Assembly: GCA_965263355.1 (NCBI GenBank)
Contig: CBDHHL010000032.1
Span: 960,001-1,024,000, forward strand
Length of the DNA stretch: 64,000 bases
Source of the DNA: Leptolyngbyaceae cyanobacterium
GTDB lineage: Bacteria; Cyanobacteriota; Cyanobacteriia; Phormidesmidales; Phormidesmidaceae
Reading direction: 5' to 3'
This document shows positions 3,885 to 63,255 of the stretch, piece by piece. A program made the position numbers and the translations under genes. The notes below the pieces were generated by a model. The model was not told where the DNA came from and searched no databases. It saw nothing but the letters and a program-made list of their open reading frames with translations. Position 1 is the first letter of the stretch. Each line of letters starts with the position of its first letter.

Positions 3885-5567
3885 ATGCCTTACTCTCCCC
3901 TGCAGTTATCCATGTTTGCCCTGGCGATGGCCAGCCAGTGGCAGCAGCGTGCCTTTACTCGCCAGCTGCCCCAAGCAAGCGCTATCCAAGCTCGGTTTTT
4001 GCAAAAATTACTTAAAGAGCAGCAGGGGACGGCCCTAGGACAAGCCTTAAAACTAGATCGCGTTAGTAGCATTGAGGAATTTCGCCAACAGGTTCCCAAA
4101 TGGAACTACGACGGCTATGCTCCATACTTTGAGCGAGCGGCAGCGGGAGAGCCAAACGTGGTATCACCATTCCCGGTACAGAGTTTTAACATGAGCAGCG
4201 GCTCCACCGGCAGCCGTAAACTCATTCCCATTACCAAACGGGTCAAGCAAACTCGAGCCTATGCCAATCAAATAGCCATGGGCTATGCCTTTGAACAATC
4301 TCGTACCCAGGGGGGTAGCATCGGTCAACTATTGCTGACAACCTCAATCGCACCTCTGGGCACAACGAAGGGCGGCATCACTTACGGCCACGTTAGTGGT
4401 AATCAGTTGCGCACCACACCATCGTTTGCATTCAAACAGCTATTTGCTCAGCCCTATGACGCCATGCTGGTGAATGATACTGCCGCCCGCAACTATGTTT
4501 GTTTGCTGTTTGGTCTACAACAGCGATGGCTGACCTACATAGGTGCTAATTTTCCGCTGATCATGCTACAGCTATGCACTTACCTGGAAAAATTTGGCCC
4601 TGACTTAGTCAACGATATTGAACGGGGTAACATTTCCCAAGATATTTTTCTAGAACCAGAGCTGCGCCAATCATTACAACAACAACTATCGCCCCACCCT
4701 CAACGGGCCAAAGAACTGCAAGCTGTACTAGCTGACCATGGTCGGCTGTTACCTCGCTATGTGTGGCCAAATTTGGCATTTTTAATTACTGCCCGAGGCG
4801 GTCCGTCAGATTTTTATTTTGAACGTTTTAATGAGTATTTTGGGAATACCCCCATTTTTGGCGGTACCTATGCTGCGTCAGAAGCTGTCTTTGGGAGCTA
4901 CTGTCAGCTCAATGCCGACGGAGCTATTTTGGCATTAAAAACAAACTTCTTTGAGTTTGTGGCCCCCGATCAGTGGGAACAGGATAATCCTAAAACCTTA
5001 CTGCCCCATCAGTTGGAAATCGGCGAATATTATCGTGTATTAATCACTAACTATTCAGGATTTTGTCGGTATGATATTGGCGATATCTTACAAGTCATAG
5101 GCAAACGCCACGGTGTTCCTATAATTGTTTTTCGCTACCGTCGGGGGGGAACTCTCTCAGCGATTTCAGAAAAAACGACTGAGTATCATGTCACTCAGGT
5201 CATGGCTGCCTTGCAAGGAAACTTACCCATTGAGGATTTTTGTGTCACTCTCTCAGAATCTCTTATCGATCCCTATTATGTGCTCAACATCGAACTTGCA
5301 GGCAACAATAAACTATCTGATCCAAAACAATTTTTAGCCGCGTTTGATCACCATATGCAACAGACCAATGAGTCCTATGGGTTCAAGCGTCAGAAAAATG
5401 ATATTACCCGTCCCCAACTCAATCTTTTAGCGCCGGGCAGCTTTAAGCAGCTGCGGCAGCAAAGGCTGAAACCAGGAATTTCGGATGATGTTCAAGTGAA
5501 ACTAGCTCATATCAGTTGCGATCGCACGCTCCTGGACAGCATCACCATCATCCAACAAATTCGTTAA
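3885..5567 (+). CDS. GH3 family acyl-acid amido synthetase (GH3 auxin-responsive promoter family)
   Basis: SSGSTGSRKLIP, YAASEA, RYDIGD motifs; 560 aa. Confidence 0.9.
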   Translation: MPYSPLQLSMFALAMASQWQQRAFTRQLPQASAIQARFLQKLLKEQQGTALGQALKLDRVSSIEEFRQQVPKWNYDGYAPYFERAAAGEPNVVSPFPVQSFNMSSGSTGSRKLIPITKRVKQTRAYANQIAMGYAFEQSRTQGGSIGQLLLTTSIAPLGTTKGGITYGHVSGNQLRTTPSFAFKQLFAQPYDAMLVNDTAARNYVCLLFGLQQRWLTYIGANFPLIMLQLCTYLEKFGPDLVNDIERGNISQDIFLEPELRQSLQQQLSPHPQRAKELQAVLADHGRLLPRYVWPNLAFLITARGGPSDFYFERFNEYFGNTPIFGGTYAASEAVFGSYCQLNADGAILALKTNFFEFVAPDQWEQDNPKTLLPHQLEIGEYYRVLITNYSGFCRYDIGDILQVIGKRHGVPIIVFRYRRGGTLSAISEKTTEYHVTQVMAALQGNLPIEDFCVTLSESLIDPYYVLNIELAGNNKLSDPKQFLAAFDHHMQQTNESYGFKRQKNDITRPQLNLLAPGSFKQLRQQRLKPGISDDVQVKLAHISCDRTLLDSITIIQQIR

Positions 5568-7318
5568 AACGGCGTGTATTGGATGGAAAAATGAATCCCA
5601 CTGTCCTGCAACCCCTCATCATCCGTATCTAAATCCACCAGGGGAATGCCCCAATCCAAACGGGCAGAAAAATTGTCACTCTGTTGCCAGAACAATCCGA
5701 ACCCTGTTCCGACCAAAGTATCTGGACCAGGGGAACTACCATCATCATTCCAAACAGTACCTACGTCTATAAACGGCGTAACCTGCAATACACCATCTAG
5801 CTCCGGAACCCTGGCAATGGGCCAACGCAACTCCGCCGATAACAACGCCCCATTATCACGCCGTAACGCATCTTGTCGATAACCACGAACACTTTGCCCC
5901 CCGCCCAGGCTAAATTCCTCTTGGGGAAGTAAATCATCGGTAGTGAGCTGCACGTCCCCCCGCAAGAGAAACAATCGATCTGGTTTACCCAATAGTTTGA
6001 TCCACTGCCCTTGACCACGCCAGGAAAAGAACCGGCTATCCGGGGCGTCATCATTGATGGTGGCACCGAGTAAATCCACCCCCACGTTGAACTGCGATCG
6101 CAATGCCAATACATGACGCTGACTGCGCTGCGTCCACTCTTGAAAAAACCGTACGGCACTTGTGCGCGTACGACCATTTTCATCGGCACCAGGGGATAGG
6201 GGAAATGGCCCTATATCGTCTAGACCTAAACGGGTTTGACTGGTTTGATGGGATAGGGTAAGACCCAGAGCCGCGTCCTGGGTAGGCGTTTCAATCAAAG
6301 GATGACGATAACCCAGCTCATAGTAAGCACTGTCAGAGGAAATATCGAGCACCGAAAACGCAGAATTAATCACCCGGCTATCGGCGTAACCAGCTGCTAG
6401 ACGCAACGTATCGTTATTAGGACTGACTGGCACAGTGTAGCTAAAGTCCACACCATCACTGCCGTCAGTATGCTTATAATCCAGCGTAACTCGATCACCT
6501 ATACCAAACAGGTTACCTTCATCCACCCCAAGACTGACCTGGGTGCCGCCAATATTAGGCGATCGATTATTGGCCAAACTTGTATTAACTGCAAACGAGT
6601 CCGCCTCAACCACATCAATGACTAGCAAACTCGTCCCTGGCTGGACTCCGGCTTGTAAATCGGCAGATACCGTTTCTATTAATGGATTTAATTGCAATCG
6701 CTGCAGACCAGCCAAAAGTGTATCTACGTTAAGAGGAGGCTGGGCCCCTAATCCCACGCGACTACGAATATAGTCTTTATCTAGACGCCGGGTACCTCTA
6801 ACAACAATATCCTCTAACCGCCCTTCTACTACCTGAATAACGACAGTATTATCAACAACAGTCTGAGGCGGGATCAATGCTCCAGAGGTTAGATAGCCAG
6901 CTTGCACGTACCGATCGGTAATGGCCGAGCGCAACGCTAAAAGCTCATTAAAACTAAGCTGTCGATTACGATATTGATCCAGTAATTCTGCTAAATCCTC
7001 TTCATCGAAAATGGTGCTACCCATAATCTCGATATTTTCCACATAAAACTTAGCCTCCCCTTCTCCCAATCCCTCATCTGGAGGGACCGGTTCACCAGGA
7101 GAAAGAAGTTCATCCGGAGAAGGTAAGGATGGAGGTAAAGGCTCATCCGGTAAGGGGATCTCTGGCAGCGTCTCAGGCGGAATCGGTGATGTTTGAGCCA
7201 CGAGGGCACTTGCAGACGTCTGCACCATGGCCGGATAAACCAGTAAACAGCCGCACTGCCCTAGACCAAATAATATTTTTGTCAACAAAAATGAATAGTA
7301 TTTGTTTCTTAATACCAT
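5564..7318 (-). CDS. ShlB/FhaC/HecB two-partner secretion outer-membrane transporter (TpsB)
   Basis: POTRA region (ITDRYVQAGYLTS..VVEG), VRGY motif, beta-barrel pattern, C-terminal Phe. Confidence 0.93.
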   Translation of the reverse strand: MVLRNKYYSFLLTKILFGLGQCGCLLVYPAMVQTSASALVAQTSPIPPETLPEIPLPDEPLPPSLPSPDELLSPGEPVPPDEGLGEGEAKFYVENIEIMGSTIFDEEDLAELLDQYRNRQLSFNELLALRSAITDRYVQAGYLTSGALIPPQTVVDNTVVIQVVEGRLEDIVVRGTRRLDKDYIRSRVGLGAQPPLNVDTLLAGLQRLQLNPLIETVSADLQAGVQPGTSLLVIDVVEADSFAVNTSLANNRSPNIGGTQVSLGVDEGNLFGIGDRVTLDYKHTDGSDGVDFSYTVPVSPNNDTLRLAAGYADSRVINSAFSVLDISSDSAYYELGYRHPLIETPTQDAALGLTLSHQTSQTRLGLDDIGPFPLSPGADENGRTRTSAVRFFQEWTQRSQRHVLALRSQFNVGVDLLGATINDDAPDSRFFSWRGQGQWIKLLGKPDRLFLLRGDVQLTTDDLLPQEEFSLGGGQSVRGYRQDALRRDNGALLSAELRWPIARVPELDGVLQVTPFIDVGTVWNDDGSSPGPDTLVGTGFGLFWQQSDNFSARLDWGIPLVDLDTDDEGLQDSGIHFSIQYTPF

Positions 7319-7512: not shown

Positions 7513-8913
7513 CTAAAACGTTACAGACTGAATCGGCAATGTTAGGGTGAAGCAGGTTCCCTGCCCTAAGGTGGACGCTACATCAATAGAGCCACTATGC
7601 TTATCGACTACAATCTGCCGCACAATAGCTAACCCTAATCCCGTTCCCCGACCAACCTCTTTGGTCGTAAATAAATGATCAAAAATGCGTGGTTTGACGG
7701 CCTCATCAATGCCTGCACCATTATCCTCAATCTTGATCACAATACATTTATCATCTGCTGCTAAACCAGTGCTGACAGTTATTAGGTTTGATCGAGTCTT
7801 AGGAACTTCACAATTCGCTAGTTGGCTAATATCATCTAGCGTATCAATGGCATTTGCCAACAGATTCATAAAAACCTGGTTCAGTTGACCGGCAAAGCAT
7901 TCAATCTCTGGAATATCCTGGTAGTACTTTTTAACCTCGATTTCTGGTCTATTTTCATTGGCCTTGAGGCGATGCCTTAAAATCAACAAGGTACTATTAA
8001 GACCGTCATGCACATCAAACGATACCTTGTGTTCTTCATCTGCCCGTGAAAATGTGCGAAGACTATCACTAATATTGTGAATACGTTCCATACCTGTGGC
8101 CCAGGAAGACAAAAGTTTTTCTAAGTCTTGGCTTAAAAAATCCAGCTCAATCGATTCAATCCGCTCTTGAATAGCTTGCCCTGGGTCTGGAAATGTCTTT
8201 TGGTACAGTTCGATTAACCCTAACAGCTCCTGAATATATTCTCGGAGTGGCTCTAAGTTACCCTGCAAAAAACTAATGGGGTTATTAAGCTCATGGGCTA
8301 CACCTGCCACCAAATTCCCCAATGCCGACATTTTTTCATTTTGGACTAGCTGCAACTGAGCCTGCTGCAGTTTTTTTAGAGAATCTGATAACTCAGCCGT
8401 ACGTTGCTCAACCCTATGTTCAAGGTCTTGGGCTAATTGGTGGAGCCGAGATTCTGCCACAGTTTTTTCAGCAATCTCCTGGGTTAACAGTTCATTCTTT
8501 TCTTCTAACGCTTGAGTAAGAAATTTCAGGTGCAAATGAAGTTTGACACGCGCGATGACTTCTTTTTGCTGAAAGGGTTTAGTGATGTAGTCTACGGCCC
8601 CCATCTCTAATCCTTGCACCTTGTACTTAGAATCTGAAAGGGCCGTCATAAAAATGATGGGTATCGCCTGGGTCTCAGTATTGGCTTTTAGCCGTTGACA
8701 GGTTTCGAAACCATCAATTCCAGGCATCATCACATCCAACAAAATAAGATTAGGCTGCGCATATTTAGCCTGTTCAATCGCAGATACTCCATCGGTAGCC
8801 ACCAGCATTGTCCAATCATTGCCTTTAAGGGCATCAGACAGCACCTTTAAGTTAGTGGGCTTATCGTCCACTAACAATATCCGCACTGGCTGATCAAAGG
8901 AGCTGCTGGTCAT
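7513..8913 (-). CDS. Hybrid response regulator / histidine kinase (REC-HisKA-HATPase)
   Basis: [17 protein letters not shown] receiver; VAHELNNP H-box, NLLANA, DNGAG, GTGLGL; overlaps the upstream kinase stop. Confidence 0.95.
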
Positions 8914-11711
8914 AGGGATTTTCTAAGTGATACATGAGCCTGTAACAGCTGCTTGATTTTTGCAATCTGAAAATTTGAAGCCAGTGTTTGCAATGTATTA
9001 ATCAACTGTTGTGACTGAGCATCTGTCACCACCAGTGTCTTTAGCTTAGTTTCGATGTCCTGAATATTCCCCATCATCGCCCAGTGGTAAAGCTCATCCA
9101 AGATGGTATCAGGGATTAAAACAGGTGTATCCATCTTTAAATTGATGGGTGAACTTGGTTCAATCTGAGAATTATTCAAATCACTCTCATCGTATAGCCA
9201 CTCAAGCGCAAGCAATGTTTCCAAGGTTTCTGTTAGAGTTTTTAAATCAATGGGTTTAGGCAAAAACGTATTCGCACCAGCCGCTAAACTGCGTTGGCGA
9301 TCCGTTTCAAAAACACTGGCACTAATCACAATTACGGGAATATCTTGAAGTCCTTTGATCTGCCTTAACTGTTGAAGTAAATCAACTCCATTGAGTGTAG
9401 GCATAACCAAATCCGTAATAATCAGGTCAGGATATTGCTGCTTAATTAACTCTAAACCAGTTAAGCCATTGTCAGCACTATAGACATGGAATCCGATAGA
9501 ACCCAAAAAATCCAACAGCAGTTTAGAATCTTCTGAACTATCATCAATGACTAAAATGTTTGGAGTTTTTCCTTTAATACCAATAATTGTTCTGGCTGAG
9601 TCAATAAGGTGACTGCGGTCACCATACTCCAGCACAGGAATTTCCAAATCCATCCAAAACAGACTCCCCTCCCCTGGCATGCTTTGTACCTGAAGCTGGC
9701 TCCCCATTAACGTGACAATTTGTTGACTAATGGCTAGCCCCAAACCTGTTCCCTCTGACTTACGCTGACCATTGCCAACTTGCTCAAATGGTTTGAAAAT
9801 CTGTTCCAATTGGTCTGAAGTTATACCAATTCCCGTATCCTCAACCGATATACGCAGCCGACAATATTGGATTAACTGAGATGAGCCATCAGAAGAAGCG
9901 TTATCTAACCGCTTTACACTAAATGCAACACTCCCTTGATCGGTAAATTTTATAGCGTTACTAATCAGGTTAATCAAGACTTGACGAAAGCGTTTTTCAT
10001 CAATCTTCACTATCTGAGGTAGCGGGTAATCTAGGTTTAGAGTAAAGGTAAGCTCTTTTGCACGGGCACGAATCTGACACATCTCAGCCACACCCGATAG
10101 CAATGGCTCTAGATAAACCTCTTTAGGAAACAGTTCAAGCTTACGGGCCTCAATTTTGGCAAGGTCCAAAATATCATTAATCAAGGTGAGCAGATGGTTA
10201 CCACATTGATGAATAATCGAAATTTTATTGTGCTCTTCGTCTGTTAACGTTCGTGAGTTTTGCAAAATTTGGGTATATCCCAAAATGCCATTGAGGGGTG
10301 TACGTAGCTCATGGCTCATATTGGCTAAAAACTCGCTTTTGGCTTGGTTAGCATTATCAGCAGTCTGTTTAGCTTGGGCAAGTTCTTGCGTACGCTCTTT
10401 CACCTTTGTTTCTAGGGTGAGCGCATAATCTAAAAGCCGTTGATGAGAAAACTTCAACTGCTGATTTGTGAGCTGTAACCGATGTTTTTTAAACCGACTA
10501 GTGGTTGCGATCGCACTCCCCACTAAAGCCACCATCGGTGCCACGACCGGCAACACCCACCCCATTAGAAAACTGATATAACTTCCCCCTAGAAGCAATA
10601 TAGCACTCCCCCCCGTGACGACACTCGGCATTAAAAACCACCGCCGCTGCCGATTTTCTTGATGGTTATAGGTTTCTAAAAACCAATTTCCCAATGTCCC
10701 CCCAAACGCCCACAGAGTAATCCACAGCCACTGATATTCCCATGTCCAGCCCCGCAATAGAGGCCGTTTCCCCAGAGCACTGTCCAATAGATAGCTGGTA
10801 ATGTTGGCATGAATTAGCACACCAGCCATACGCTCATCTGCAGGCCCAAAGCCACCACTGTAGGGAGTGGCAAAAAAGTCCTTAGTACTGGCAGCAATGG
10901 AACCAATGTAGACAATGCGATCGCGCATCAAGCCCTCAGGAATCTTACCTGCCAGTACATCCGTAATTGAAATTTGTTGATATTGATGACTAGGACCATG
11001 CCACCCCATCAACACTTGATAGCCACCTAACTCATGGTTAGGGTAGCCAGCCGCCCGTCGCACCATCGGTAAAAAATCAGCCTGCCCCAACCGAAACTGC
11101 TGCCGGTCAAGGTTAACAGATTCAAGGACAATGCCATCCTGTTCTAGATAATTAAGGGCTAATTGGGTGCCCAACCCAGTTTTAATGACAGATGTTCGTT
11201 TATCTTCAGCAACGACTAAAATACGCCGAATGGTTTGATCCTTATCTGATACAAAATCAGCAACGGCAACCTGGCCAGTCTCTGCCAAGATTGGTGGAGG
11301 AGCTACCTGTCTACCAAAAACCTTCTCCACACCAATCAGTTGAGGTGTTGTCTCAAAAACATCCAGCAGTTGCCGATGCCCTGGCTCTTCCGGTAAATCT
11401 CGATACAGATCTAACCCAATCACCCGAGGCTGCTGAGCCCGAATATTAATTAACACCTGAGCCAAGGTTTTATCCGTAATGGGCCAGTGTCCCAACGCCT
11501 GAATATCCGGCTCATCCACCGTGACCACTACCACCCGATTATCAACAGGTGCTAACGCTCTACGACGATAAAACTCATCGCGGATAGCCCATTCCAACAA
11601 GTTTAACAGACCGAACCCATTGACAAAAATCACAATAGCGGACACACCAGGTGCCACAGACCAAATGGGCTTAGATTGCCGAATAAATTGTCTGAGGGCA
11701 ACTAAAAACAC
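8910..11711 (-). CDS. CHASE2-domain hybrid sensor histidine kinase (CHASE2-3TM-HisKA-HATPase-REC)
   Basis: [29 protein letters not shown]2 motifs, three TMs, [15 protein letters not shown]-terminal receiver with intact Asp. Confidence 0.95.
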
Positions 11712-11863: not shown

Positions 11864-12883
11864 TCAAAGGAAAGAATGCTCTAACAAAGAATCTAACCCA
11901 ACTGAGTCAAGGAACTCAGTCCAATTAGCAATCGTATCAACCTGAGTTTGAGGATTAAGTTGTAGCTCAGCCAACTGTTCAGCTGCATCGTACCAGATGC
12001 CAGCTTGGGCTAACACCTTAGCTTTCGCCAAACCAGTAAGCCCATCCACTTGAACAACAGAAGCTACATCAACACGCTTAATCCAAGCAGTCACATAGGG
12101 GCTGCTTGGTGTAATGTATTGGCCCGTTTGCAACGTTACAAACCATTGATAATATTTGCCAACAGCTAATTCTGGAGCATTCTCGTGTAGAGTAATCCTC
12201 AAAATACCATCCGCTCCATCCAAAGGAACGACCTGACGATAAATGACTGATCGAGTCTCATCTTTTAGGCTAAAAATCGCAGTATGCGCTTTAGTTTCAG
12301 GCAAATAAGCCATGATTGTAGGTCGCGCTGAAACAGTCAACCCATAAAGGTTGACTGGAGTCACAGGCATCATAGCTGTTACATAATTAGGCGCAAACCC
12401 ATGAACCGCAACACTCCCCTCTTCTGAGGAGAACAGAGCACTATCTTCAACACGACTTTCTCGAGAGGCACCGCTCACTGTACTCTGAGGGGCTGCATTG
12501 TCTGGAGGCGGGGTAAACCCAATTCGAGAGGCACCACTAGTTGCACTATCAGGCGCAGAATTGTCTGGAGGTGGAATAAACCCAATTCGAGAGGCACCAC
12601 CAGTTGCATTATCAGGCGCAGAATTGCCTGGAGGCGGAATAAACCCAATTCGAGAGGCACCACCAGTTGCACTATCAGGCGCAGAATTGTCTGGAGGCGG
12701 AATAAACCTGATACTGCTGCGGGAAGCCCCGCCATCACCACGACTTGGAGCAGTGTTGTCCACCGGAGGAATAAAAGTCACTGCTAAGGTCGGCGCTAGA
12801 GTAGTCAACCAGAGCCCTAAGCTTATATATGTCAGCCTGACTAGATTACTCAACAAGCTATACTTCATCACCATACGCCTCAC
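11864..12883 (-). CDS. DUF928 domain exported protein with N-terminal 21-aa tandem repeats
   Basis: Signal peptide, GGASR motifs, GLTVSARPTIMAYLP, GKYYQW, AGIWYDA, W..FLDSVGL; start may be a few codons downstream. Confidence 0.88.
   Translation of the reverse strand: MRRMVMKYSLLSNLVRLTYISLGLWLTTLAPTLAVTFIPPVDNTAPSRGDGGASRSSIRFIPPPDNSAPDSATGGASRIGFIPPPGNSAPDNATGGASRIGFIPPPDNSAPDSATSGASRIGFTPPPDNAAPQSTVSGASRESRVEDSALFSSEEGSVAVHGFAPNYVTAMMPVTPVNLYGLTVSARPTIMAYLPETKAHTAIFSLKDETRSVIYRQVVPLDGADGILRITLHENAPELAVGKYYQWFVTLQTGQYITPSSPYVTAWIKRVDVASVVQVDGLTGLAKAKVLAQAGIWYDAAEQLAELQLNPQTQVDTIANWTEFLDSVGLDSLLEHSFL
12461..12781 (-). repeat. Coding tandem repeat: 4 x 63 bp (12461-12712) plus one degenerate unit
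   Basis: Units encode IRFIPPPDNSAPDSATGGASR / IGFIPPPGNSAPDNATGGASR / IGFIPPPDNSAPDSATSGASR / IGFTPPPDNAAPQSTVSGASR. Confidence 0.95.
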
Positions 12884-13270
12884 TTAACCCTAGGTAAGAT
12901 TGCTGAAGTAATCGATACTAAAAATGCAAACGTGCAGATAACCCTTTAACACAGACCTATGCGCCTTACTCTTCCTAGTAAACTTTGTCTCAATTCAAAC
13001 CTCATTTTTTTTTACCGACTTTCTACTAAAAACCATAGTTACGTAGAAATAAGAGAGCCTTATTTAGGATAAATCCTAGTCAATTTTAATCAAAAGCAAG
13101 GACATAATCTTTATGATTATTGAGCATTTTATAGAGCTAATTAGCCCCAAAAAATTTATCGAATACTTATTTTTTTAGTTTTGCGAAAGTTCACCCAAAG
13201 TCTTTTGTAAAAATTCATGAAACGAGTTTACGCAAATTCACGCAAAGTCTCTTTTTTTAGTTACTTCCGC

Positions 13271-15844
13271 TTAGAGCCAGTTACCAATTAACACATAGGG
13301 CGACCAGAAAAAGGGCTCAGCAAAGTCTTTGTTTTTTAACAACTTCAGCTGTGCCTGACGTAGCGCTTCTGCCTTAGTCATCCTAGACTGTCCTAGATTT
13401 TGATAAAAATCGATCATCAGCTGCTTAGCCACTTCATCCCTGACAGACCATAGAGTCGCTAGAGTAGAACGGGCACCCGAGCGAACCGCTAATCCAGCTA
13501 ACCCCAGTGTGGCCCGATCATCCCCTGCAGCTGTTTCACAGGCACTGAGGGTTAACAGCTCAATGGCCTGACTACGCTCCGTTTCCCTACGTTTCAGCAG
13601 CTCTGATAACTCATTGATATTGATAGCCCCATCCCAAGTTAGAAAAAAGGTCTGACTAAAATCAGAACTAAACTGCCCATGGCTTGCTAAGTGGAGCACA
13701 TTGACTTGACGATCGGTCAAACTTTGACGTAGAGACTGACGCGTAAACTGCTGATCTAATAACTGATGTGAAGAAAACAGTTTACTGATATTGCTTACCT
13801 CTTCTTTAACCGCAGGCAATGCACTGAAACGACCGCGGGCCTGACTAATGCCAGCCACAATAGCATTATTGTCTTGGTTCTCTAAAGCATTGGCCGGTAA
13901 TAGCTGTAACCCTGGCGATAGGGCAACAGCATATTTTTCAATCAGGTATTGCTGGCCGTCGTGAAGAGCCGACATCGGTAAATTGCGAAGCAGACCGTCT
14001 AACACAAATACTAGAGTTTGCTCTGGCTTCAACAGACCGGCCTCTTCCGCTGGACGGATTAACCAGTTGTATAGAGTCTGGGCATAGCGTAATTGATCCT
14101 GACGATCGGTGGATGGATGCAGATTAGTTAGAAATGAGCGCAGCGTAGTTTCAAGTTGAGCATATTCGATCTTAGTTTCGTAGGCTTGCAACTGACCAGG
14201 TTGCGAATAAATCACTGCTAGCCGATCATCTAGAATGATGGCGTAAACCACCATGGCGTTGGCATCAATTTGATCAACTTTGTCAGTCTCAAGGTCTATA
14301 CAAGCCTCTCGAAAGAAATTGTCTAATTCTGCTATTTGTAGATTTTCTAAAATCACACGCGCTTTCTGTAAGGAGTTCTGACTCCCCTCTCGTAAAAGCT
14401 GTGAAACCAGATCTCGGTAAACCGGTTCTACCTGCTCTCGGTAGGAAAATTGAATGTCCTGGTTGATTGCTATCAGATCTCCCCGCAGACTTTGTAGAGC
14501 ATCCACCGCCTTCGTGTAAGCATCGATAGACGACTGTAATTCTCCCTGCTGTTCAAATAGCTGTCCCAGCTGCCAGGCTGACTGGGAAATGATATCTGCT
14601 GATTGAATAGATTCGGCTAGGAAAAGGGATTGTTCAGTTAAGTTAAGGGCATCGGTTAGTTGTTTATTCTGACGATATAGCCTTCCTAACTGATAGAGAG
14701 AGTAAGCCTCGGCTCGCCAATCTTTCAGTGCTTTGGCCGCTCTCACACCATTGGCTAATAGCTGACTAATTTGAGGGGTTGACAGAGGCTGAAGATCGTG
14801 GGGAAGTCGAGACAAATTGTGGGCCAGGTTAACGGTACCGTATACGGTCGTACGGCTGGCTGACATTGTAGTGAGCTGCTTTTGAATTTGCGCAGTAAGT
14901 TGAGAAATATCTGCTGTCTCTTCAAGATCGACATAGGTGGAAAGTTTATCTAAACGAGCCTGGAGCTGATCAAGCGGGATGAGCGCAGCGTCCTCCGCAG
15001 CTTGAAAGTAATCCAGCGCCTTTTGAGGTGAATCGACCTCAGCAGCCAACTTACCAATGCTCAAGTAGATAGAACTTAGTTCGGTTTGAGCGTCTAAATT
15101 ACGGGCTAGCTCAAGGCTTTGGGCCAGTACATTGTAACTATCACGGGGAGAACCGATCAGCTGTAGCGTTTGCCCTAAACTGCGCAATGCGGCAATTTTC
15201 AGCTGGCTATCGGGCAGCGTATTTAACTGCTGTGTAATTATTTGCAGTTGATCCTTGGCCCGTCGATAAAAACCTAGGGTTTGTAATGCCTGGGTCTGGT
15301 TAATTCGCACCCCCAAAGCACCCGCTGTGTCATCGGCCTGGAGATAGTAGATCTCTGCTTCTTGCCAAAGCTCTAGGGCGGTTTGAGCCTGACCACCGTG
15401 GTTCAGTGTAAGGCTAGCCTGAGTATTAAGGGTTTGAGCCCACAAAATCGGCTCTATATGGGGGGCCGTTTCCAGTAATGTTCGACTCATTTCAACGGCT
15501 TGCTGAGCCTGATCCCAGTTGTTGAGCGCTTGCTGGGCAGAGGCGATACCATTCCAGCCCATAACCTGACGAGGCAGATCTTCTTGTTGAGACGCTTGCT
15601 GAATGGCAATTTGCCACTGTTCAATTGCAGCCGCAAACTGTCCTGCGTGGTAATGGGTGCGTCCGACTGCCAATAGATCGCTGGCTGATATGGCCTGAAC
15701 TGTTGTAGCTGGTCGCTCTGGTGTTTCAGTAATTGCTGGAACGGGTAAGGTAGGGTTAAATGCGATCGCAACCACCACTAGAAACCCTAATACCCCAAAC
15801 CCCAACCAACGTAATCTTTTTATTCGGAAAGACAAATACGCCAT
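13271..15844 (-). CDS. TPR-CHAT (caspase HetF-associated) cysteine protease, exported or membrane anchored
   Basis: N-terminal hydrophobic signal, TPR-like helices, LHLASHG and LSACET catalytic His/Cys, ATLWSV, PFFWSPYVLIGNWL. Confidence 0.95.
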   Translation of the reverse strand: MAYLSFRIKRLRWLGFGVLGFLVVVAIAFNPTLPVPAITETPERPATTVQAISASDLLAVGRTHYHAGQFAAAIEQWQIAIQQASQQEDLPRQVMGWNGIASAQQALNNWDQAQQAVEMSRTLLETAPHIEPILWAQTLNTQASLTLNHGGQAQTALELWQEAEIYYLQADDTAGALGVRINQTQALQTLGFYRRAKDQLQIITQQLNTLPDSQLKIAALRSLGQTLQLIGSPRDSYNVLAQSLELARNLDAQTELSSIYLSIGKLAAEVDSPQKALDYFQAAEDAALIPLDQLQARLDKLSTYVDLEETADISQLTAQIQKQLTTMSASRTTVYGTVNLAHNLSRLPHDLQPLSTPQISQLLANGVRAAKALKDWRAEAYSLYQLGRLYRQNKQLTDALNLTEQSLFLAESIQSADIISQSAWQLGQLFEQQGELQSSIDAYTKAVDALQSLRGDLIAINQDIQFSYREQVEPVYRDLVSQLLREGSQNSLQKARVILENLQIAELDNFFREACIDLETDKVDQIDANAMVVYAIILDDRLAVIYSQPGQLQAYETKIEYAQLETTLRSFLTNLHPSTDRQDQLRYAQTLYNWLIRPAEEAGLLKPEQTLVFVLDGLLRNLPMSALHDGQQYLIEKYAVALSPGLQLLPANALENQDNNAIVAGISQARGRFSALPAVKEEVSNISKLFSSHQLLDQQFTRQSLRQSLTDRQVNVLHLASHGQFSSDFSQTFFLTWDGAININELSELLKRRETERSQAIELLTLSACETAAGDDRATLGLAGLAVRSGARSTLATLWSVRDEVAKQLMIDFYQNLGQSRMTKAEALRQAQLKLLKNKDFAEPFFWSPYVLIGNWL

Positions 15845-16063: not shown

Positions 16064-18721
16064 CTAATTAAAATCCATAGAAGCATCAGCACAGGTAGTT
16101 TTGGAAACCGATGAAACAGCTGCCGCATTCGTTGCAACTAGCTCAACTTGCCCCAGGTCATTGTGATACCAGATATTAGCTTCCTCTAATGTCGCATCAG
16201 TTGACACAACAGAGAATTCAATCTGGGAATCGTTGAGAAAAGAAGTGAGGTCGCGGGTGTCAGTCCAGATGCGATCGCGATGCACCCCCTCAGTCGGGGC
16301 CGCAGGCACTCCACCACGCCCTGTGACAACAAACTGATTACGCCCGCCCGTACAGCCCTGAACAACCTGGTTGCTGGCATCTGCTAAATTTTCAGGCAGT
16401 TCTACCAGTCCTGAATCTGGCTGTACATTAAAGTCATTAATGGCAACCGTACCACTGAGACCAAACTTAGAACTTGCGGTAATGTCGTTATCGGGGGTGA
16501 GTTGTTCGCGGAACATCAATCCAAACAGCCCCTGGGTCGTAATATCAATGTTGCCACCACTGCCAAAAACCGCATTGGCAACAATGTCACTATTCTCTAA
16601 ACCTAGAATGACTGGAGCAACTAAAACAATATTACCTCCAGCAGCCATGTCTGTAGCACTCGTCACAATTTCGCTATTTTGACGCAACAATATCAGCTGA
16701 GTAGCATTGATATTGATATTGCCCTCAATACCCGCTGTTACTTGTGCCTGCAAAACACCATCGTTGAGCACAAGATTGTCTGCAGAGATTGTCAAATTGC
16801 CTGCATTGCCCTCATTCAAACTACTGACCGACACTTGCCCCCCATCGCGAATGGTAATTTGATCGCCATTGAGCCTAATGGCACCTGCATTAAAGCTAGT
16901 AGTTGAGCTAGACGTGATTGCACTATGAAATAATGCATCATCCGATTGTCCAGCAATGTCAATTTCGCTGGCACGAATGTTAATGCTGCCTGCTGCTCCA
17001 AAACCCTCAGTCGATGCCGTAATCTGTCCTCCACGGGAAATCTGCAACTGATCAGCTTCGATATCTAGCGATCCTCCATTACCGGTGGAATCTATATTCA
17101 CACTGGCAACGATACCACTCACCGTATCGGACGCGTCCACAACAGCATCAGCTACCTCAATCAGGTCAGCCTGGATAGAAAGATTGCCCCCATCACCACT
17201 GCCAACAGTATTAACGGCTATTTTGCCCCCTTGAGTAATCGTTAACCGGGGTGTTGTCAGGCTCAGGTCTCCCGCATTTCCAGTAGACTCAAATTCAGCA
17301 CTCGAAAATATACCGCTGGACAAAAGATCCCCAAAAACAACTCCAGTACCTTGAATATCAACGGCATCTGTCGCCGTAATCGTAAACGCCCCTGAGCTAC
17401 CCCCACCAAAGGTACCAGTGCCGATTTGGCTACCCTCCCGCAGTACTAAACGCTCAACATTTAGAATAAAATCCCCACCATCACCTGCATCGGGGCCTTC
17501 TCCAAAGGTCGTCGCTTGAATAAGTGTTGGCTTTTGAGCCAAAAGTTGGTTGGCAGTAATGGTCAGATCCCCTCCTTGACCAGGTCCAAACGTGTCTGCT
17601 GCAATGACAGTCGCGAACTCATTGGAGATCCCCAATAGAGAAATGTCATCCGCATTGATTGTCAGGTCTCCTCCTGCCCCCGTTCCCTCCGCTTCGGCAA
17701 CAATAAAGGCTGTATTTGTCAACGTCAACAGATCTGTCTCAATTAATAGGCTATTGCCCTGTCCTGCAGCTAGGGGACTCACATCAATAACAACCGGGGG
17801 AAAGGTATCATCTCCAATCAGCTCCAACTTGTCAGTAGCGCGAATAGTTAGAGTTTCACCATCAGAGTCTCCCAGGTTAAATGCGAATAGGGCCGCATCG
17901 TCGGTCAGGGTAATCGAGCGACCCTGCAATTGAAATCGACCCCCTCCATCACCACTAACATCAACCATCGCCCCTTGAGTCAGCAGAATATCTTGAAAAT
18001 CAGTAGCATTGTCATAGGTAATCAAAAACGTGTTGGGATCGATGGTGACTTGGCTATCTGCCGCCACACCACCCAGCACAGTATAGCCAGACTCTACGAT
18101 GATGTTACTTCCGAAAAATTGAAGATTACCACCTAACAAACCCAGAGATTCTCCAGTATTGAGAATTAACTCACTTTGATTAAGGGTAATCTCATTGGCC
18201 GTATTACCAAACTGCAAACCGACAGGGGTACTAACGCTTAACAGAGGAGCACTGTTCGAATTACGACTACTAAAACTCAGTTCATCGTTAAATAAAACAC
18301 TCTCGGCTGTACTGGCAAAGAATGATCCTGGCAACAACAAACTTGCATTAGCTCCAAAGGTAATACCGTTGGGATTGATCAGAAATAAATCCGGATTGTT
18401 CCCACCGGTTAGCTCTAATTGTCCATCGATCAAAGAGAGATTTGCCCCCGTTACTCGACCAATAACGACATCCACAGCACTCTGAGTGCCATCTAGCTGA
18501 AACAGCACATCGGCTGTACTGGGTGAAAATTCTTGAAAACTGTGGAACAATGTTGTCAACTGCTGGCTACCGCCCGTGACGGTGAAGGGGCCATCGCCTG
18601 CAATGGTGGTACCCACTGTTCCATCCGCGACTACATTCTGAGCATAGCCAGGCAAAGCCAATGCCAAAATGCCGATTACCCCCAGCCACCCTATGGGCCA
18701 AGCAAATCGTCTATTGCTCAT
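16064..18721 (-). CDS. Filamentous haemagglutinin-like TpsA exoprotein, paralogue A
   Basis: Signal peptide, TPS domain (LFHSF..RVTG..LFLINPNGI), GNAGxLxI beta-helix repeats, C-terminal FVVTGRGG domain with two Cys. Confidence 0.93.
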   Translation of the reverse strand: MSNRRFAWPIGWLGVIGILALALPGYAQNVVADGTVGTTIAGDGPFTVTGGSQQLTTLFHSFQEFSPSTADVLFQLDGTQSAVDVVIGRVTGANLSLIDGQLELTGGNNPDLFLINPNGITFGANASLLLPGSFFASTAESVLFNDELSFSSRNSNSAPLLSVSTPVGLQFGNTANEITLNQSELILNTGESLGLLGGNLQFFGSNIIVESGYTVLGGVAADSQVTIDPNTFLITYDNATDFQDILLTQGAMVDVSGDGGGRFQLQGRSITLTDDAALFAFNLGDSDGETLTIRATDKLELIGDDTFPPVVIDVSPLAAGQGNSLLIETDLLTLTNTAFIVAEAEGTGAGGDLTINADDISLLGISNEFATVIAADTFGPGQGGDLTITANQLLAQKPTLIQATTFGEGPDAGDGGDFILNVERLVLREGSQIGTGTFGGGSSGAFTITATDAVDIQGTGVVFGDLLSSGIFSSAEFESTGNAGDLSLTTPRLTITQGGKIAVNTVGSGDGGNLSIQADLIEVADAVVDASDTVSGIVASVNIDSTGNGGSLDIEADQLQISRGGQITASTEGFGAAGSINIRASEIDIAGQSDDALFHSAITSSSTTSFNAGAIRLNGDQITIRDGGQVSVSSLNEGNAGNLTISADNLVLNDGVLQAQVTAGIEGNININATQLILLRQNSEIVTSATDMAAGGNIVLVAPVILGLENSDIVANAVFGSGGNIDITTQGLFGLMFREQLTPDNDITASSKFGLSGTVAINDFNVQPDSGLVELPENLADASNQVVQGCTGGRNQFVVTGRGGVPAAPTEGVHRDRIWTDTRDLTSFLNDSQIEFSVVSTDATLEEANIWYHNDLGQVELVATNAAAVSSVSKTTCADASMDFN

Positions 18722-18923: not shown

Positions 18924-21614
18924 TCATAAAGAAAATGCTGACTTGGAGGAAATGGCACAGGTAGCGCTGGCAAATGATGAAACAGTTGCATTGGCTGAAA
19001 TCAACTCAATTTGTCCTAGAGCATTGGTATACCAGACATTAGCTTCTTCTAAGATCGCATCAGTGGGCAAAACAGAAACTTTAGTTTGAGAATTGTTGAG
19101 AAAAGGAGTGAGGTCGCGGGTGTCAGTCCAGATGAGATCGCGACGCACCCCCTCAGTCGGGGCCACAGGCACTCCACCACGCCCTGTGACAACAAACTGA
19201 TTACGCCCGCCCGTACAGCCCTGAACAACCTGGTTACTGGCATCTGCTAAATTTTCAGGCAGTTCTACCAGTCCTGAATCTGGCTGTACATCAAAGTCAT
19301 TAATGGCAACCGTACCACTAAGACCAAACTTAGAACTTGCGGTAATGTCGTTATCGGGGGTGAGTTGTTCACGGAACACCAACCCAAACAGCCCCTGGGT
19401 CGTAATATCAATATTGCCACCACTGCCAAAAACCGCATTAGCAACAATGTCGCTGTTCTCTAAACCAACAATTACCGGAGCCGTTAAGGTAATATTCCCT
19501 CCTGTTGCCATACCAGTGGCACTGGTCACAATTTGACTATTCTGACGCAGCAATATCACTTCAGTTGCCGTAACTTCAAGATTTCCTTCACTACCGCCAG
19601 TTACCTGAGCTTGAAGAGTTCCATTGTTCAGAGAGAGTCTCTCAGTGGAAATCGATAAGTTACCAGCAGCGCCACCGTTGAGGCTATTGACTGACACAAC
19701 CCCCTGATCACGAATCGTAATCTGATTACCAATAAGATTAACCGAACCAGCATCGGCACTGGCATCGGCATTCGTTGTCGCACCAGACATAATTCCACTG
19801 CTAAACAGACCATCCGTAGATTGTCCCGAGACTTCAATTTCATCGGCACGAATCGTTACAGTCCCCGCATTACCGGCTCCATCCGTAGAGGCCGTAATTT
19901 GTCCACCATTATAAACACTTAAACGATTTGCCTCAATATCTAACGACCCACCATTGCCAGTTGAACCAGTGACAGCATTGGCCACTAAACCACTGACCGC
20001 ATCAACAAAATCTACAATTGGATCGGCCACTTCTATTTCATCGGCTCGAATAGTAATATTCCCTCCATTACCCTCTGCAAGGGTATTGACGGCAACTTTT
20101 CCTCCTGCCACAACGCTTAATCGAGGTGTGGTAATACTCAAGTTGCCAGCGTTTCCAGTCGAACCAGGTTCAGCACTGGAAAATAAACCACTGGATATAA
20201 CACCACCAATAAATGTATTAAATCCAGTAATTTCCACAAAATCTGTCGCCACCACCACTAAATCACCAGCGTTGCCGCCCGCCCCCTCAAACGGACCTGT
20301 TCCTACTTGGGCTCCATCACGTAGAACTAACGACCCAATATTAAATCGTAAATCACTACCATTTCCACTATCAAGTCCTATGCCCAAAACATCACCAGTC
20401 ACCCGCGCCGTACCCTGAGCGATTAAACGCTCAGCAGTAATTTCGATCCCGCCTCCTTGTCCGCTATCATAAGTATTTGCAGCAAGAACAGTTGCAGCTA
20501 TATTTCCATCGGGATCTCCCAACAGCAAAACATCGTTTGCACTGATAGTTATCCCCCCGCTAGCCCCTTGAGCAAGGGTATCGGTACTGACATAAGCTGA
20601 TTGACTAAGCAATAACTGATCTGCCTCAATCAGTAACTGATTACCTCGCCCCTCACCATAAACATCAACGAAGATGAAACTGGTATCGGGTGCCGGCATA
20701 TTTGTTCCAATCACCTCTAATTTTTCAGACGCTTGAATAGTCACTGTTTCACCATCGGCTGCCCCCAGATTAGAGGCTTCTAAAGCCGCATTATCAAGTA
20801 CCCTCACATTACGTCCCTGGACTTGGAATCTACCACCACCATCACCACTAACATCAGCATATGTTCCCTGGTCAAGGGTAACATCCTGAAAAGAAGTTGC
20901 ATTTGTGTAGTCCAACAAAAAAGTATCCGTCTCCAGAGCAACTTCACTTCCTGGGGCTACACTACCCAGAGATAACATTCCCGCAGGAGCGTTCAAGAAA
21001 CTGCCTGTAACCTGCAGCTCTCCCCCCAAGAACCCTAGAGACTCTCCTGGATTAACAACTAGGACTCCTTGATCAATATTAATCGGACTGGCAACAGCCC
21101 CAAACTGTAACCCTACTGGCACACTCACTGACAATAAAGGTGCACTCCCAGGATCGCGGCTGCTAAAACTCAGTCCATCATCGAATAAAACACTCTCCGC
21201 TGTACTGGCAAAAAATGATCCTGGCAACAACAAACTTGCATTAGCACCAAAAGTAATACCGTTGGGATTGATCAGAAATAAGTCTGGATTGTTTCCACCG
21301 GTTAACTCTAACTGCCCATCAATTAAAGAGAGATTTGCCCCCGTTACTCGACCAATAACGACATCCACAGCACTCTGAGTGCCATCTAGCTGAAACAGCA
21401 CATCGGCTGTACTGGGCGAAAATTCTTGAAAACTATGGAACAATGTTGTCAACTGCTGGCTACCGCCCGTGACGGTGAAGGGGCCATCGCCTGCAATGGT
21501 GGTACCCACTGTTCCATCCGCGACTACATTCTGAGCATAGCCAGGCAAAGCCAATGCCAAAATGCCGATTACCCCCAGCCACCCTATGGGCCAAGCAAAT
21601 CGTCTATTGCTCAT
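18924..21614 (-). CDS. Filamentous haemagglutinin-like TpsA exoprotein, paralogue B
   Basis: Same architecture; first ~144 aa identical to paralogue A, central repeats diverged. Confidence 0.93.
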   Translation of the reverse strand: MSNRRFAWPIGWLGVIGILALALPGYAQNVVADGTVGTTIAGDGPFTVTGGSQQLTTLFHSFQEFSPSTADVLFQLDGTQSAVDVVIGRVTGANLSLIDGQLELTGGNNPDLFLINPNGITFGANASLLLPGSFFASTAESVLFDDGLSFSSRDPGSAPLLSVSVPVGLQFGAVASPINIDQGVLVVNPGESLGFLGGELQVTGSFLNAPAGMLSLGSVAPGSEVALETDTFLLDYTNATSFQDVTLDQGTYADVSGDGGGRFQVQGRNVRVLDNAALEASNLGAADGETVTIQASEKLEVIGTNMPAPDTSFIFVDVYGEGRGNQLLIEADQLLLSQSAYVSTDTLAQGASGGITISANDVLLLGDPDGNIAATVLAANTYDSGQGGGIEITAERLIAQGTARVTGDVLGIGLDSGNGSDLRFNIGSLVLRDGAQVGTGPFEGAGGNAGDLVVVATDFVEITGFNTFIGGVISSGLFSSAEPGSTGNAGNLSITTPRLSVVAGGKVAVNTLAEGNGGNITIRADEIEVADPIVDFVDAVSGLVANAVTGSTGNGGSLDIEANRLSVYNGGQITASTDGAGNAGTVTIRADEIEVSGQSTDGLFSSGIMSGATTNADASADAGSVNLIGNQITIRDQGVVSVNSLNGGAAGNLSISTERLSLNNGTLQAQVTGGSEGNLEVTATEVILLRQNSQIVTSATGMATGGNITLTAPVIVGLENSDIVANAVFGSGGNIDITTQGLFGLVFREQLTPDNDITASSKFGLSGTVAINDFDVQPDSGLVELPENLADASNQVVQGCTGGRNQFVVTGRGGVPVAPTEGVRRDLIWTDTRDLTPFLNNSQTKVSVLPTDAILEEANVWYTNALGQIELISANATVSSFASATCAISSKSAFSL

Positions 21615-51449: not shown

Positions 51450-51518
51450 CTGACTAACTAAATGTAGCCAAGCTCTTAATCGTAATCAGACCTGTAAGCA
51501 ACTAGTCGCAATCAGCCC

Positions 51519-52052
<534 letters not shown>

Positions 52053-52085
52053 TCAGAACAATCTCACTTAGTCGTCAAGCGGTGA

Positions 52086-52655
<570 letters not shown>

Positions 52656-56844: not shown

Positions 56845-56888
56845 AGACTAACTAAACGTAGTCAAGCAATGAATCGAGTAATCAGCCC

Positions 56889-57422
<534 letters not shown>

Positions 57423-57455
57423 TCAGAACAATCTCACTTAGTCGTCAAGCGGTGA

Positions 57456-58028
<573 letters not shown>

Positions 58029-60242: not shown

Positions 60243-60995
60243 TTATGCTTCAGTGATGCTAACGATCTTGGCACCAGAACGTTGCATGTTCTGAATCCGG
60301 TTAGAAAGCTGGTTAAACCCAACTTCTACACTATAGTTACTCTTGGTAACCCGGCTGCCAAAGTTAGCTTTAGTTGCCACAATACGGAAACGCTTGCCAG
60401 TATTGTTGTAGGCACCAGAACCGGTAGCCGGTGACTTGATTTTAGTCCCTAAGTTACCGGCTACATCTCCAATCAATTTGGCAGATTTTCCAGTGTCATT
60501 AGCCGCATACCCCCGATCTAACGCAAACAAGCGGTTAAAGGCAACATTCTTAACACCAGTTTGGCTAACACCACAGGCATAGGGAACTACGTTCTCACCA
60601 AATGTAGACAGATACTCATCACTGCTCAGGTAAGAATCAATGTCCGCATCGTAGCCAGAGGCGTTGTAGGTCTGAACATGCTCAGAAATTTCTGATTGAT
60701 CCTGGGGAGCACGGCCTAACAAATGCTTAAAGTTCAGCTCAACAAAACGGTAGGGAGAGGAATTTTCAAAGAAGCGCGCCTTATAAAGGCCTGAGGTAGC
60801 CACGGCCCGCACAAAACCACGTACGGTAATTTCACCATTCTTGAGCTTGGATTCTGCACTCGCTAAACGCTGACTCTCTAGCAGATGAGCATTCCCCAAA
60901 ACCTGCTTATAAACTGCACGAATAACCACCTGAATATCTTCCTCAGTGGCGTTGGGACGCAGCTCAACCGCTTCATTATTAACCCACAGTGACAT
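60243..60995 (-). CDS. cpeE: Phycoerythrin-associated rod linker, CpeE-like (second paralogue)
   Basis: MSLWV..VELRPNATEED; linker domain plus CpcD-like C-terminus (GAKIVSIT); AGGAG RBS. Confidence 0.8.
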   Translation of the reverse strand: MSLWVNNEAVELRPNATEEDIQVVIRAVYKQVLGNAHLLESQRLASAESKLKNGEITVRGFVRAVATSGLYKARFFENSSPYRFVELNFKHLLGRAPQDQSEISEHVQTYNASGYDADIDSYLSSDEYLSTFGENVVPYACGVSQTGVKNVAFNRLFALDRGYAANDTGKSAKLIGDVAGNLGTKIKSPATGSGAYNNTGKRFRIVATKANFGSRVTKSNYSVEVGFNQLSNRIQNMQRSGAKIVSITEA

Positions 60996-61116
60996 AACCG
61001 TTTCTCCTAAAAAATAGTGATGATTAAACAACCCGTAACCTGAATAGCTACAGCATTTTGCAAAACACACCGCCAGCAGAGAACCGTTTCTTTGCCGGTG
61101 GTGACAGTCTTTAAAC

Positions 61117-61878
61117 CTAGTTGGTTTCAGTGACGCTCAGAATTTTGCCACCTGTCTTCAGAATGTTCTGAAGACGCTGGGACATCTGACTGTAGGAAAC
61201 AACATATTCTTGCTGACTAACACGTCCCAACGCAGCGGCAGCTGTAGATGTGCTAACTTTAATGCGAAATCGCTTATTGGTACTACTACGCCCTGTACCG
61301 GCTTGAGGAGCCGAAATTTTAGTCGCCAAGTTGCCACCGATATCACTAATTAGCTTAGCTTGGTTACTGCTGTCGCTAGTGGCATCTCCCCTTACAAGGG
61401 CAAAGGTACGGTTAAAGCCAACATTCTTAATGCCGGTCTGAGTCTGGTTACCACGGACAGAGGGAACAGAATTCTCGCCAAAGTTAGCGATGTACTCATC
61501 ACTGTCGATGTAAGAGTTAATCTCAGCTGTATAGCCGTGCTCATTGTAGAGAGCCACATGCTCAGCAATTTCTGCCTGATCTTGGGGCGCACGACCTAAC
61601 AGGTGCTTAAAATTTAGCTCGATAAAGCGGTAAGCCGAAGAATTCTCAAAAAAGAGGGAGCGATACAGCTCTGACTGGGCTACTGCCCGGACGAATCCTC
61701 TAACTGTGATATCGCCATCACGCAGTAAGGACTCAGCACTCGTTAAACGCTGACTCTCCATTACATGCTGGTTACCTAAAACTTGCTTATATACAGCACG
61801 AATAACCGTTTGCAGGTCATCCTCGGTTGCATTAGGGCAAAGTTCAACGGGCACAGCATTGGTCACCCAAAGTGCCAT
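61117..61878 (-). CDS. cpeE: Phycoerythrin-associated rod linker, CpeE-like
   Basis: [18 protein letters not shown]; linker domain plus GGKILSVT. Confidence 0.8.
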
Positions 61879-62358: not shown

Positions 62359-62403
62359 AATAGGAAACCTCCCCTAGCTCTCACCTAGAGGAGGTTTCCT
62401 ATT
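62359..62403 (-). terminator. Strong hairpin immediately after cpeD
   Basis: AATAGGAAACCTCC..CTAG-loop-CTAG..GGAGGTTTCCTATT. Confidence 0.8.
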
Positions 62404-62415
62404 CACCTAGGAGCA

Positions 62416-63156: not shown

Positions 63157-63255
63157 TAGAGTTCTCCTACTGGTGATTATTAAAAAAGTCTCAACAATAC
63201 CTACTAGAAAATAGCTAGAGCTATAAATGCTCTAGCCATTCTTGTAAGACATACC

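Follow-up and report, generated by a model that had tools for sequence, protein, structure and literature searches.

Introduction

CHASE2 is an extracellular module whose ligands are unknown according to the accessible text of PMC10581220. One of the closest described systems is that of Magnetospirillum, where the gene of a CHASE2 adenylate cyclase follows mtxA; the accessible part of PMC4439547 reports that deletion of mtxA had no phenotype under the conditions tested. MtxA (structure 4Z29) resembles the DUF928 protein presented here in its body, its signal peptide and the position of its gene before CHASE2. The two proteins share 12% identity, and MtxA has an extra internal N-terminal domain (residues 25-141, by SAXS), while DUF928 carries a linear motif. 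In Sinorhizobium, CyaD1/D2/K and NsrA form a system in which CHASE2 output is driven by a protein signal via an outer-membrane barrel, and the accessible text of PMC13001267 names no protease, DUF928 protein or direct CHASE2 ligand for it. A caspase-like domain and CHASE2 are found in one cyanobacterial-type system in the EACC2-caspase-CHASE2 fusions with ECF sigma and DUF1822 (PMC8195603, accessible part), and cytoplasmic caspase-CHASE2 fusions also appear in the available text of PMC3501461. In the EACC2 fusions the caspase is cytoplasmic and part of the same protein, whereas the protease of our locus is separate and likely exported.

Caspase-like proteases of the CHAT type share their fold and His-Cys dyad with the TPR-CHAT protein of our locus, as seen in Craspase Csx29, separase and DdvA. 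Separases cleave after Arg and Craspases after Met or Leu (PMC11506125, accessible text), and for Csx29 cleavage follows Met427 (bioRxiv 10.1101/2022.08.17.504292, accessible part); the available portion of the SAVED-CHAT preprint does not give a cleavage site. DdvA carries a TPR-CHAT that works in the periplasm in trans-membrane signalling, but it is a membrane anti-sigma factor with proposed self-cleavage, unlike the CHAT protein described here (PMC11506125, accessible text). None of Csx29, separase and DdvA is tied to CHASE2 or to a repeat substrate.

Precursors that hold several copies of one peptide are known from fungal alpha-factor/Kex2 repeat proteins and from multi-core RiPP precursors, in which a leader or signal is followed by tandem near-identical peptides. 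In bacteria, the Bacillus Rap-Phr system combines an exported precursor, proteolytic maturation and an active peptide multiplied within the gene (PMC5199041, accessible text), as we propose here. The Phr peptides differ in being 5-6 residues long, re-imported and read by the cytoplasmic Rap, and the system lacks the folded body, the dedicated adjacent caspase-like protease and the membrane kinase of our cluster.

CHASE2 was noted as a neighbour of DUF928 in Nostoc punctiforme, and an acid-stress response was described for sll1891, with no mention of the N-terminal motif in the accessible text (PMC5587647). In the literature covered, which excludes most subscription journals, we found no description of the motif, of an array or of DUF928 function, and no paper joining CHASE2 and the CHAT domain. 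Single-motif members such as Synechocystis Sll1891 have the same domain and the same N-terminal motif as the protein analyzed here, which carries five copies of the motif and has lost both conserved Cys residues.

Results

A DUF928 gene within a cluster of seven

The stretch analyzed, hereafter the window, comprises 64,000 nucleotides of a Leptolyngbyaceae cyanobacterium. Its DUF928 gene (11864..12883, minus strand) encodes 339 aa from a GTG start, or 334 aa from the ATG at 12868, and is the fourth of seven co-oriented genes, all on the minus strand. Before it in reading order stand two genes for TpsA exoproteins with a TPS domain, exoprotein 2 (896 aa, 18924..21614) and its paralogue exoprotein 1 (885 aa, with a C-terminal TGRGG motif, 16064..18721), and the gene for a TPR-CHAT protease of 857 aa (13271..15844) with a hydrophobic N-terminus, His722/Cys769 and Asp803 in LWxVxD. 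It is followed by a CHASE2-HisKA-HATPase-REC hybrid sensor kinase (933 aa, 8910..11711), a REC-HisKA-HATPase kinase whose gene overlaps that of the sensor by 4 nt (466 aa, 7513..8913), and a TpsB/ShlB-type POTRA-barrel outer-membrane protein (584 aa, 5564..7318). The intergenic gaps in this order are 202, 219, 387, 152, -4 and 194 nt, and the same gene order is kept in nine related loci as far as their contigs extend. Among the seven cluster genes there are no RiPP-type modifying enzymes, and a scan for promoters and terminators around the DUF928 gene stayed at chance level.

Between the two TpsA genes, stretches of 179 and 92 nt at the beginning and one of 70 nt close to the end are identical, and their middles diverge, a pattern that marks the pair as a tandem duplication with a variable passenger part. 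Both proteins have a Cys followed by F-x-x-T-G-R-G-G-x-P about 100 residues from the C-terminus. A TGRGG motif near the C-terminus was seen in 14 of 35 stand-alone TPS proteins, many of the others being cut by locus edges, and in none of seven TPS-CHAT fusions. The motif is a candidate activator or second substrate of TPR-CHAT.

Several further features of the window lie outside the cluster. A gene of the GH3 family (acyl-amido synthetase type; 3885-5567, plus strand) converges on the TpsB gene with an overlap of 4 nt. A pair of genes for phycobiliproteins of 184 and 164 aa occurs twice, at 51510-52640 and 56880-58010; the copies, identical over at least 300 nt and 5,370 nt apart, flank bilin lyase-type HEAT genes and are likely an ordinary duplicated phycoerythrin-type operon. 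At 60583-63751, four related 78-nt stretches are spread over four neighbouring genes of about 250 aa, with an inverted relative near 49328; these are probably paralogous phycobilisome linker genes.

Five units follow the signal peptide

The DUF928 protein consists of a likely signal peptide, a five-unit array, a linker and an Ig-like plus helical domain, and it contains no Cys. The PF06051 profile matches the C-terminal half of the ORF with E 1.6e-39 (136 bits against a cut-off of 26), and the folded part, predicted as a beta-sandwich plus helical bundle that is MtxA-like, covers about residues 169-334 (11882..12379). Residues 1-34 (12782..12883) form a likely Sec signal peptide, called by eye from a basic start, a hydrophobic core and T-L-A then V-T-F, with the predicted cut right before unit 1. 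The units occupy residues 35-55 (unit 1, 12719..12781), 56-78 (unit 2, of 23 aa, 12650..12718), 79-99 (unit 3, 12587..12649), 100-120 (unit 4, 12524..12586) and 121-141 (unit 5, 12461..12523).

The preliminary description of the window had claimed tandem units that end in GASR and stand straight after the signal peptide, and both points hold: the units span residues 35-141 and end at residues 55, 78, 99, 120 and 141, with a spacing of 23, 21, 21 and 21, behind the signal peptide called by eye. Two further claims need revision. GASR was taken as the only invariant part; it is invariant, but so is more of the unit, as 10 of 19 columns are invariant (F.PP..N.AP.....GASR). One unit was called degenerate, which is true of its DNA and not of its protein: unit 1 agrees with the others at 31-36 of 57 nt, yet keeps all ten invariant residues, nine of them through a synonymous codon that differs from that of unit 2. 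Units 2-4 are mutually identical at 53-55 of 57 nt. The diverged synonymous codons of unit 1, an older copy, together with its retained invariant residues indicate that selection acts at the protein level in the minus frame, which leaves the plus-strand ORF of 129 aa (12498-12887) as a shadow. The array is real and, judged by its codons, under selection.

Tandem Repeats Finder reports a period of 63 bp with 3.9 copies, 89% matches and a score of 382 at 12461-12708; this array comprises the four younger units, and the fifth, older one lies outside it at 12719-12781. When residues 35-167 were shuffled, a 4-mer occurring five times was seen in none of 20,000 shuffles. Logan contigs of three runs (two samples of one study, possibly the source of the window itself) end at the array, an effect expected of a true repeat, and a 33-nt piece has about double depth in two of these runs, both of one sample. 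A macroalgal metagenome contig with 659 letters for 725 across the gene was dismissed as a copy-number allele, being too distant and too thinly covered. The DNA pattern coding for GASR has three more matches in the window, one of them at 23191; the two inside the TpsA genes were rejected, since they are out of frame and the motif is absent from the TpsA proteins.

The array multiplies a motif of the DUF928 family

Relatives were collected from 8,000 scored candidates (92 relatives), from 150 listed of 2,765 cluster representatives and from fetched loci, where two Lactococcus matches were dropped as noise. This gave 385 distinct full-length DUF928 domains, a set biased to close relatives of the query. 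By pattern, 37 of these proteins have no unit, 209 have one, 24 have two and 115 have three to eight; some variants escape this pattern, and in a few cases it counts too many. A comparison of repeat number among relatives, which had been suggested at the outset, thus shows variation, from 2 to 8 or 9 in the multi-copy proteins. The Pro-rich N-terminal motif that had been named for DUF928 proteins is indeed present in the family consensus, where it ends in GxxR, and the protein of the window has it in five copies. Independently of the pattern, 224 of 233 zero- or one-copy proteins show an Arg no more than 11 residues ahead of the linker Cys, and in 214 of them the distance is no more than six. 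Judged from these sequences, the array is the family's own single motif multiplied and no peculiarity of this genome.

In a FastTree phylogeny of the folded part, the expansions fall into two large clades (122 rows including the window, and 26 rows) plus scattered small duplications; nearly all proteins with three or more units belong to these two clades. Three or more copies are retained in 98 of the 122 members of the window's clade. A Cys after the motif together with a Cys in the Ig domain is found in 164 of 209 single-copy but in 2 of 115 multi-copy proteins; 113 of the latter have neither Cys, and the protein of the window likewise departs from the typical single-copy form. On independent pairs, copy number and Cys loss are not significantly associated (sign test, median p 1), and with so few expansion events the loss of Cys alongside expansion gives no independent evidence.

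Some DUF928 paralogues end in G-G-x-L instead of Arg (L017:6781-7536, L019:6517-7269, L153:5262-6101 and L069:5097-5819), and those at L019 and L153 adjoin intact TPR-CHATs. They are possibly uncleavable versions, or versions of different specificity. Four genomes (G001, G002, G005 and G043) have 16-19 DUF928 and 19-27 CHASE2 matches each, and the first three have 36-59 CHAT matches. The motifs of such paralogues differ in their middle residues, which could serve as address codes.

Geometry of the unit

The unit consensus is F-x-P-P-x2-N-x-A-P-x5-G-A-S-R. Its geometry was measured in 113 multi-copy, Cys-less relatives with 513 units, in which the span from F to R measures 19 residues for 408 units and 18-20 for 488. 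Duplication has affected the complete F..R unit, without the R-x-Cys stretch behind it. In 88 of the 113 proteins the first F comes three residues behind an A-x-A-type site, and at the internal joints F is residue 3-5 past the preceding Arg in 386 of 403 cases. From these spacings, signal peptidase plus cuts after each Arg would yield near-equal peptides of 21-23 residues with no spacer; this register would equally result from duplication of the N-terminal segment of the mature protein.

The GASR end had been put forward as the cleavage or docking site for the neighbouring CHAT. Its small P5-P2 residues fit cleavage, while the conserved 19-residue span is left unexplained by a cut site alone. 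In single- and multi-copy sets alike, the P5-P2 positions are filled by Gly, Ala, Ser or Thr, and Gly or Ser predominates at P1'; in columns that are partly fixed by the search pattern, the P2 Ser is kept in 86% and the P4 Gly in 96% of 526 units. An internal Arg, mostly following Pro, occurs in 274 of these units, so that a protease would need the small-residue context for its choice. The array has a low-confidence pLDDT of 54-69 in the model and is probably disordered. The invariance of GASR extends to F, PP, N and AP, and the span is fixed, so the unit is more than a cut site, and its two conserved ends suggest that something reads the whole unit and not merely five residues at the scissile bond. 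Units are more similar within one protein (0.76) than between proteins (0.51).

The TPR-CHAT protease

The adjoining CHAT protease that had been reported is intact in its His722/Cys769 dyad, and its N-terminus is hydrophobic. Among solved structures, the model of this protein matches the Craspase TPR-CHAT best (Z 30.4, 7y83), followed by separase (23.9) and DdvA (22.1), while a sequence search of solved structures with the single CHAT protein returned nothing useful. The loci contain 81 CHAT domains, of which 78 are complete; His and Cys are present in all 78, the Asp of LWxVxD in 77, and a hydrophobic start in 52 of 63 long CHAT proteins. In weak profile alignments (Csx29 E 0.005-0.02), the column of this Asp holds Ser in Csx29 and Asp in SAVED-CHAT and DdvA. 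This column is putatively the one that in separase forms the pocket binding the P1 Arg.

It had been argued that several CHAT relatives cut after Arg. This is borne out for separase, but the choice is selective: the nearest solved relatives, Craspase TPR-CHAT/Csx29, cut after Met or Leu. Two of the DUF928 genes that lack the Arg (the GGxL forms at L019 and L153) adjoin CHATs with an unchanged Asp, which means that P1 changes independently of the presumed S1 residue; across cognate pairs no covariation of the two positions was detected, the Asp being invariant.

CHASE2 is the more constant neighbour

Neighbourhoods were compared for 160 full-length DUF928 genes not picked for closeness, which make up most of the matches obtained, with flanks of about 5 kb, some at contig ends. 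Within 3 kb, CHASE2 was found beside 120 and an intact CHAT beside 59; DUF928 has a steadier neighbour in CHASE2 than in CHAT. The same is seen within Leptolyngbya PCC 7375, where a CHASE2 gene lies in the fetched 14 kb at 14 of 15 DUF928 genes and an intact-looking CHAT at 9. For about 100 of the 160, an intact CHAT is absent from the 3 kb around the gene although the Arg is mostly kept, so a reading by cleavage needs action in trans. Such action would fit one genome (G028) that has a single DUF928 gene with neither partner within 5 kb, and at a distance one CHASE2 and a TPR-CHAT.

At the fetched loci with three or more units, a CHAT gene is present in 16 of 16, including all seven not picked for closeness. 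His, Cys and Asp were seen in 15 of these CHATs, the remaining one being cut by the locus edge, and CHASE2 is next door at 15 of the 16 loci, the contig of the last one ending first. With a looser pattern, multi-copy proteins of the set not picked for closeness had CHAT within 1.5 kb in 6 of 9 cases versus 38 of 117 (p 0.06; two of the arrays were false and one CHAT was missed). Two-copy duplications at two loci (L110 and L196) have no CHAT in the fetched stretch. The CHAT link of the expanded arrays rests on about two clades, and single-copy kin are CHAT-linked as well.

Among 60 sampled genomes of the cyanobacterial phylum, 18 have DUF928 and all 18 also have this type of CHAT (best E 1e-112 or better), whereas three of the other 42 have one weak CHAT match near 1e-43. 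Some CHASE2 is present in 58 of the 60. This phyletic match is weakened by common lineage history and by a CHAT profile built largely from these same genomes. Across the 18 genomes, DUF928 copy number correlates with CHASE2 (rho 0.89) and with CHAT (0.82, the counts in several genomes coming from the best 33 scored candidates), compared with 0.28 for genome size.

Structural likeness to MtxA and the predicted complex

The DUF928 model has a pLDDT above 90 in the folded part and low values in the array. In a structure comparison over 48,161 chains, the C-terminal domain of MtxA (4z29) was the top solved match (Z 10.3, rmsd 4.1, 147 aligned) and the only row at Z 8 or more, the next standing at 7.7; Foldseek also matched MtxA (E 7.8e-4 over 180 columns). 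The two-part fold of MtxA, Ig-like plus TPR-like, is present in DUF928. The MtxA family profiles PF22433 and PF22121 did not match DUF928 at E 0.01, and an Atlas row at 0.78 counts as no more than a lead. When solved structures were searched by sequence with DUF928 or CHASE2, nothing useful came up.

A complex of the CHASE2 ectodomain with DUF928 residues 120-338 (unit 5 plus body) was predicted with a score of 0.54, against 0.34 for the best of three controls; contact agreement was at least 59% and partner pLDDT at least 67. In the benchmark, 116 of 157 solved pairs attained the complex mark, as did 2 of 215 mismatched ones, with only 18 of the 157 and both mismatches at 0.60 or under, counts that hold only roughly with custom alignments. 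The prediction lends weak support to a CHASE2-DUF928 complex. A memory of a like complex is unlikely, given that a profile found no solved CHASE2. As the runs gave no interface output, the signal may come wholly from the folded body, and it does not tell motif and body apart. Covariation between DUF928 and CHASE2 (MI-APC, 100 paired rows) was at noise level, with a top z of 6.0 against 4.8-5.9 in ten row shuffles. CHASE2 carries many conserved acidic residues.

Discussion

The DUF928 protein of the window shares with known polyprotein precursors an export signal, here called by eye, followed by tandem complete units. In contrast to alpha-factor/Kex2 and RiPP precursors, it has no dibasic spacers and a large folded C-terminal domain, and it comes without modifying enzymes. 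Starting from the array, its conservation, the gene neighbourhood and the intact catalytic dyad, we consider cleavage of this protein in some form fairly likely. In the specific reading that we favour tentatively, and to which we would give somewhat less than an even chance, CHAT cuts after each Arg and frees peptides of about 21 residues that act on the neighbouring CHASE2 kinase. DUF928 and TPR-CHAT would both be exported to the periplasm, where an envelope cue, perhaps via the TpsA C-terminus, would switch on TPR-CHAT. The active protease, if specific for Arg, would cleave DUF928 after each GASR, the MtxA-like body may hold the precursor on CHASE2, and CHASE2 would be the reader of the freed unit peptides. 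More copies would then mean a higher peptide yield per cut precursor.

In favour of this cut-and-release reading we count the duplication of whole units, their register, and the small P5-P2 and P1' residues in a likely disordered region. On the side of the protease, the CHAT gene at each of the 16 loci that have at least three units, the phyletic match and the Asp of LWxVxD in place of the Ser of Csx29 point the same way, and on the side of the receptor so do CHASE2 proximity, the copy-number correlation, the parallel to MtxA, the weak complex score and the precedent of Bacillus Phr. Against it we count that the nearest relatives of the protease cut after Met or Leu, and that TGRGG of TpsA may be a competing Arg-Gly candidate for CHAT.

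Several of these observations could be read without a released peptide. The fixed 19-residue span with conservation at both ends would be expected if the unit were an uncut, tethered docking motif for a groove, either of CHASE2 or of the TPR portion of CHAT, with copies adding avidity or bridging receptors. CHASE2 is the commoner neighbour and bears the many conserved acidic residues, numerous DUF928 genes have no CHAT in cis, the duplications at L110 and L196 arose where no CHAT was seen in the fetched stretch, and the predicted complex, though weak (0.54 versus 0.34), fits as well. The units are however packed without spacers, no sampled genome has DUF928 without this type of CHAT, and a CHAT gene is near all 16 arrays of three or more units; we regard docking as a doubtful explanation. 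The protease-side evidence serves equally well a reading in which the cut only flips a switch: DUF928 would be a bound inhibitor or activator of CHASE2, the peptides would be by-products, and the copies would set a threshold or act as a decoy that delays CHAT. CpxA-CpxP-DegP offers an analogy, the folded body is well conserved and resembles another CHASE2 neighbour, and in single-copy proteins the Cys pair (164 of 209) could tie the cut stub to the body. But a single cut at the last Arg would already strip the whole tail, and the switch gives no reason for every copy to retain F-x-P-P, N and A-P, which lie 10-18 residues ahead of the bond. We hold this explanation to be unlikely.

Neutral slippage in a disordered linker, with only one of the copies mattering, would account for the near identity of units 2-4 (53-55 of 57 nt), for the greater likeness of units within a protein than between proteins, and for a copy number that drifts from 2 to 8 or 9 among relatives. 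It is hard to reconcile with unit 1, which drifted synonymously and retained all ten invariant residues, with the three or more copies in 98 of 122 members of the clade, or with the P2 Ser and P4 Gly kept in most of the 526 units even if these columns are partly fixed by the pattern, and we consider it very improbable.

Should the peptides turn out to be no signals, what is left is the repeat expansion of a family motif in a common, undescribed gene module. If they are real signals, a clan CD protease dedicated to the task would here be producing a polyprotein signal in a bacterium. Filamentous cyanobacteria have up to about 25 CHASE2 modules per genome, and one may imagine, though we would not count on it, a widespread periplasmic relay in them, in which a TPS-switched TPR-CHAT produces Arg-ended DUF928 peptides as the CHASE2 ligand and copy number sets the gain. 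For the working part of DUF928, the regular partner of CHASE2, the array points to a single bond and a short sequence that can be synthesized. A peptide and two purified domains would thus be enough to put both the orphan sensor and the orphan, likely exported caspase-like protease to the test.
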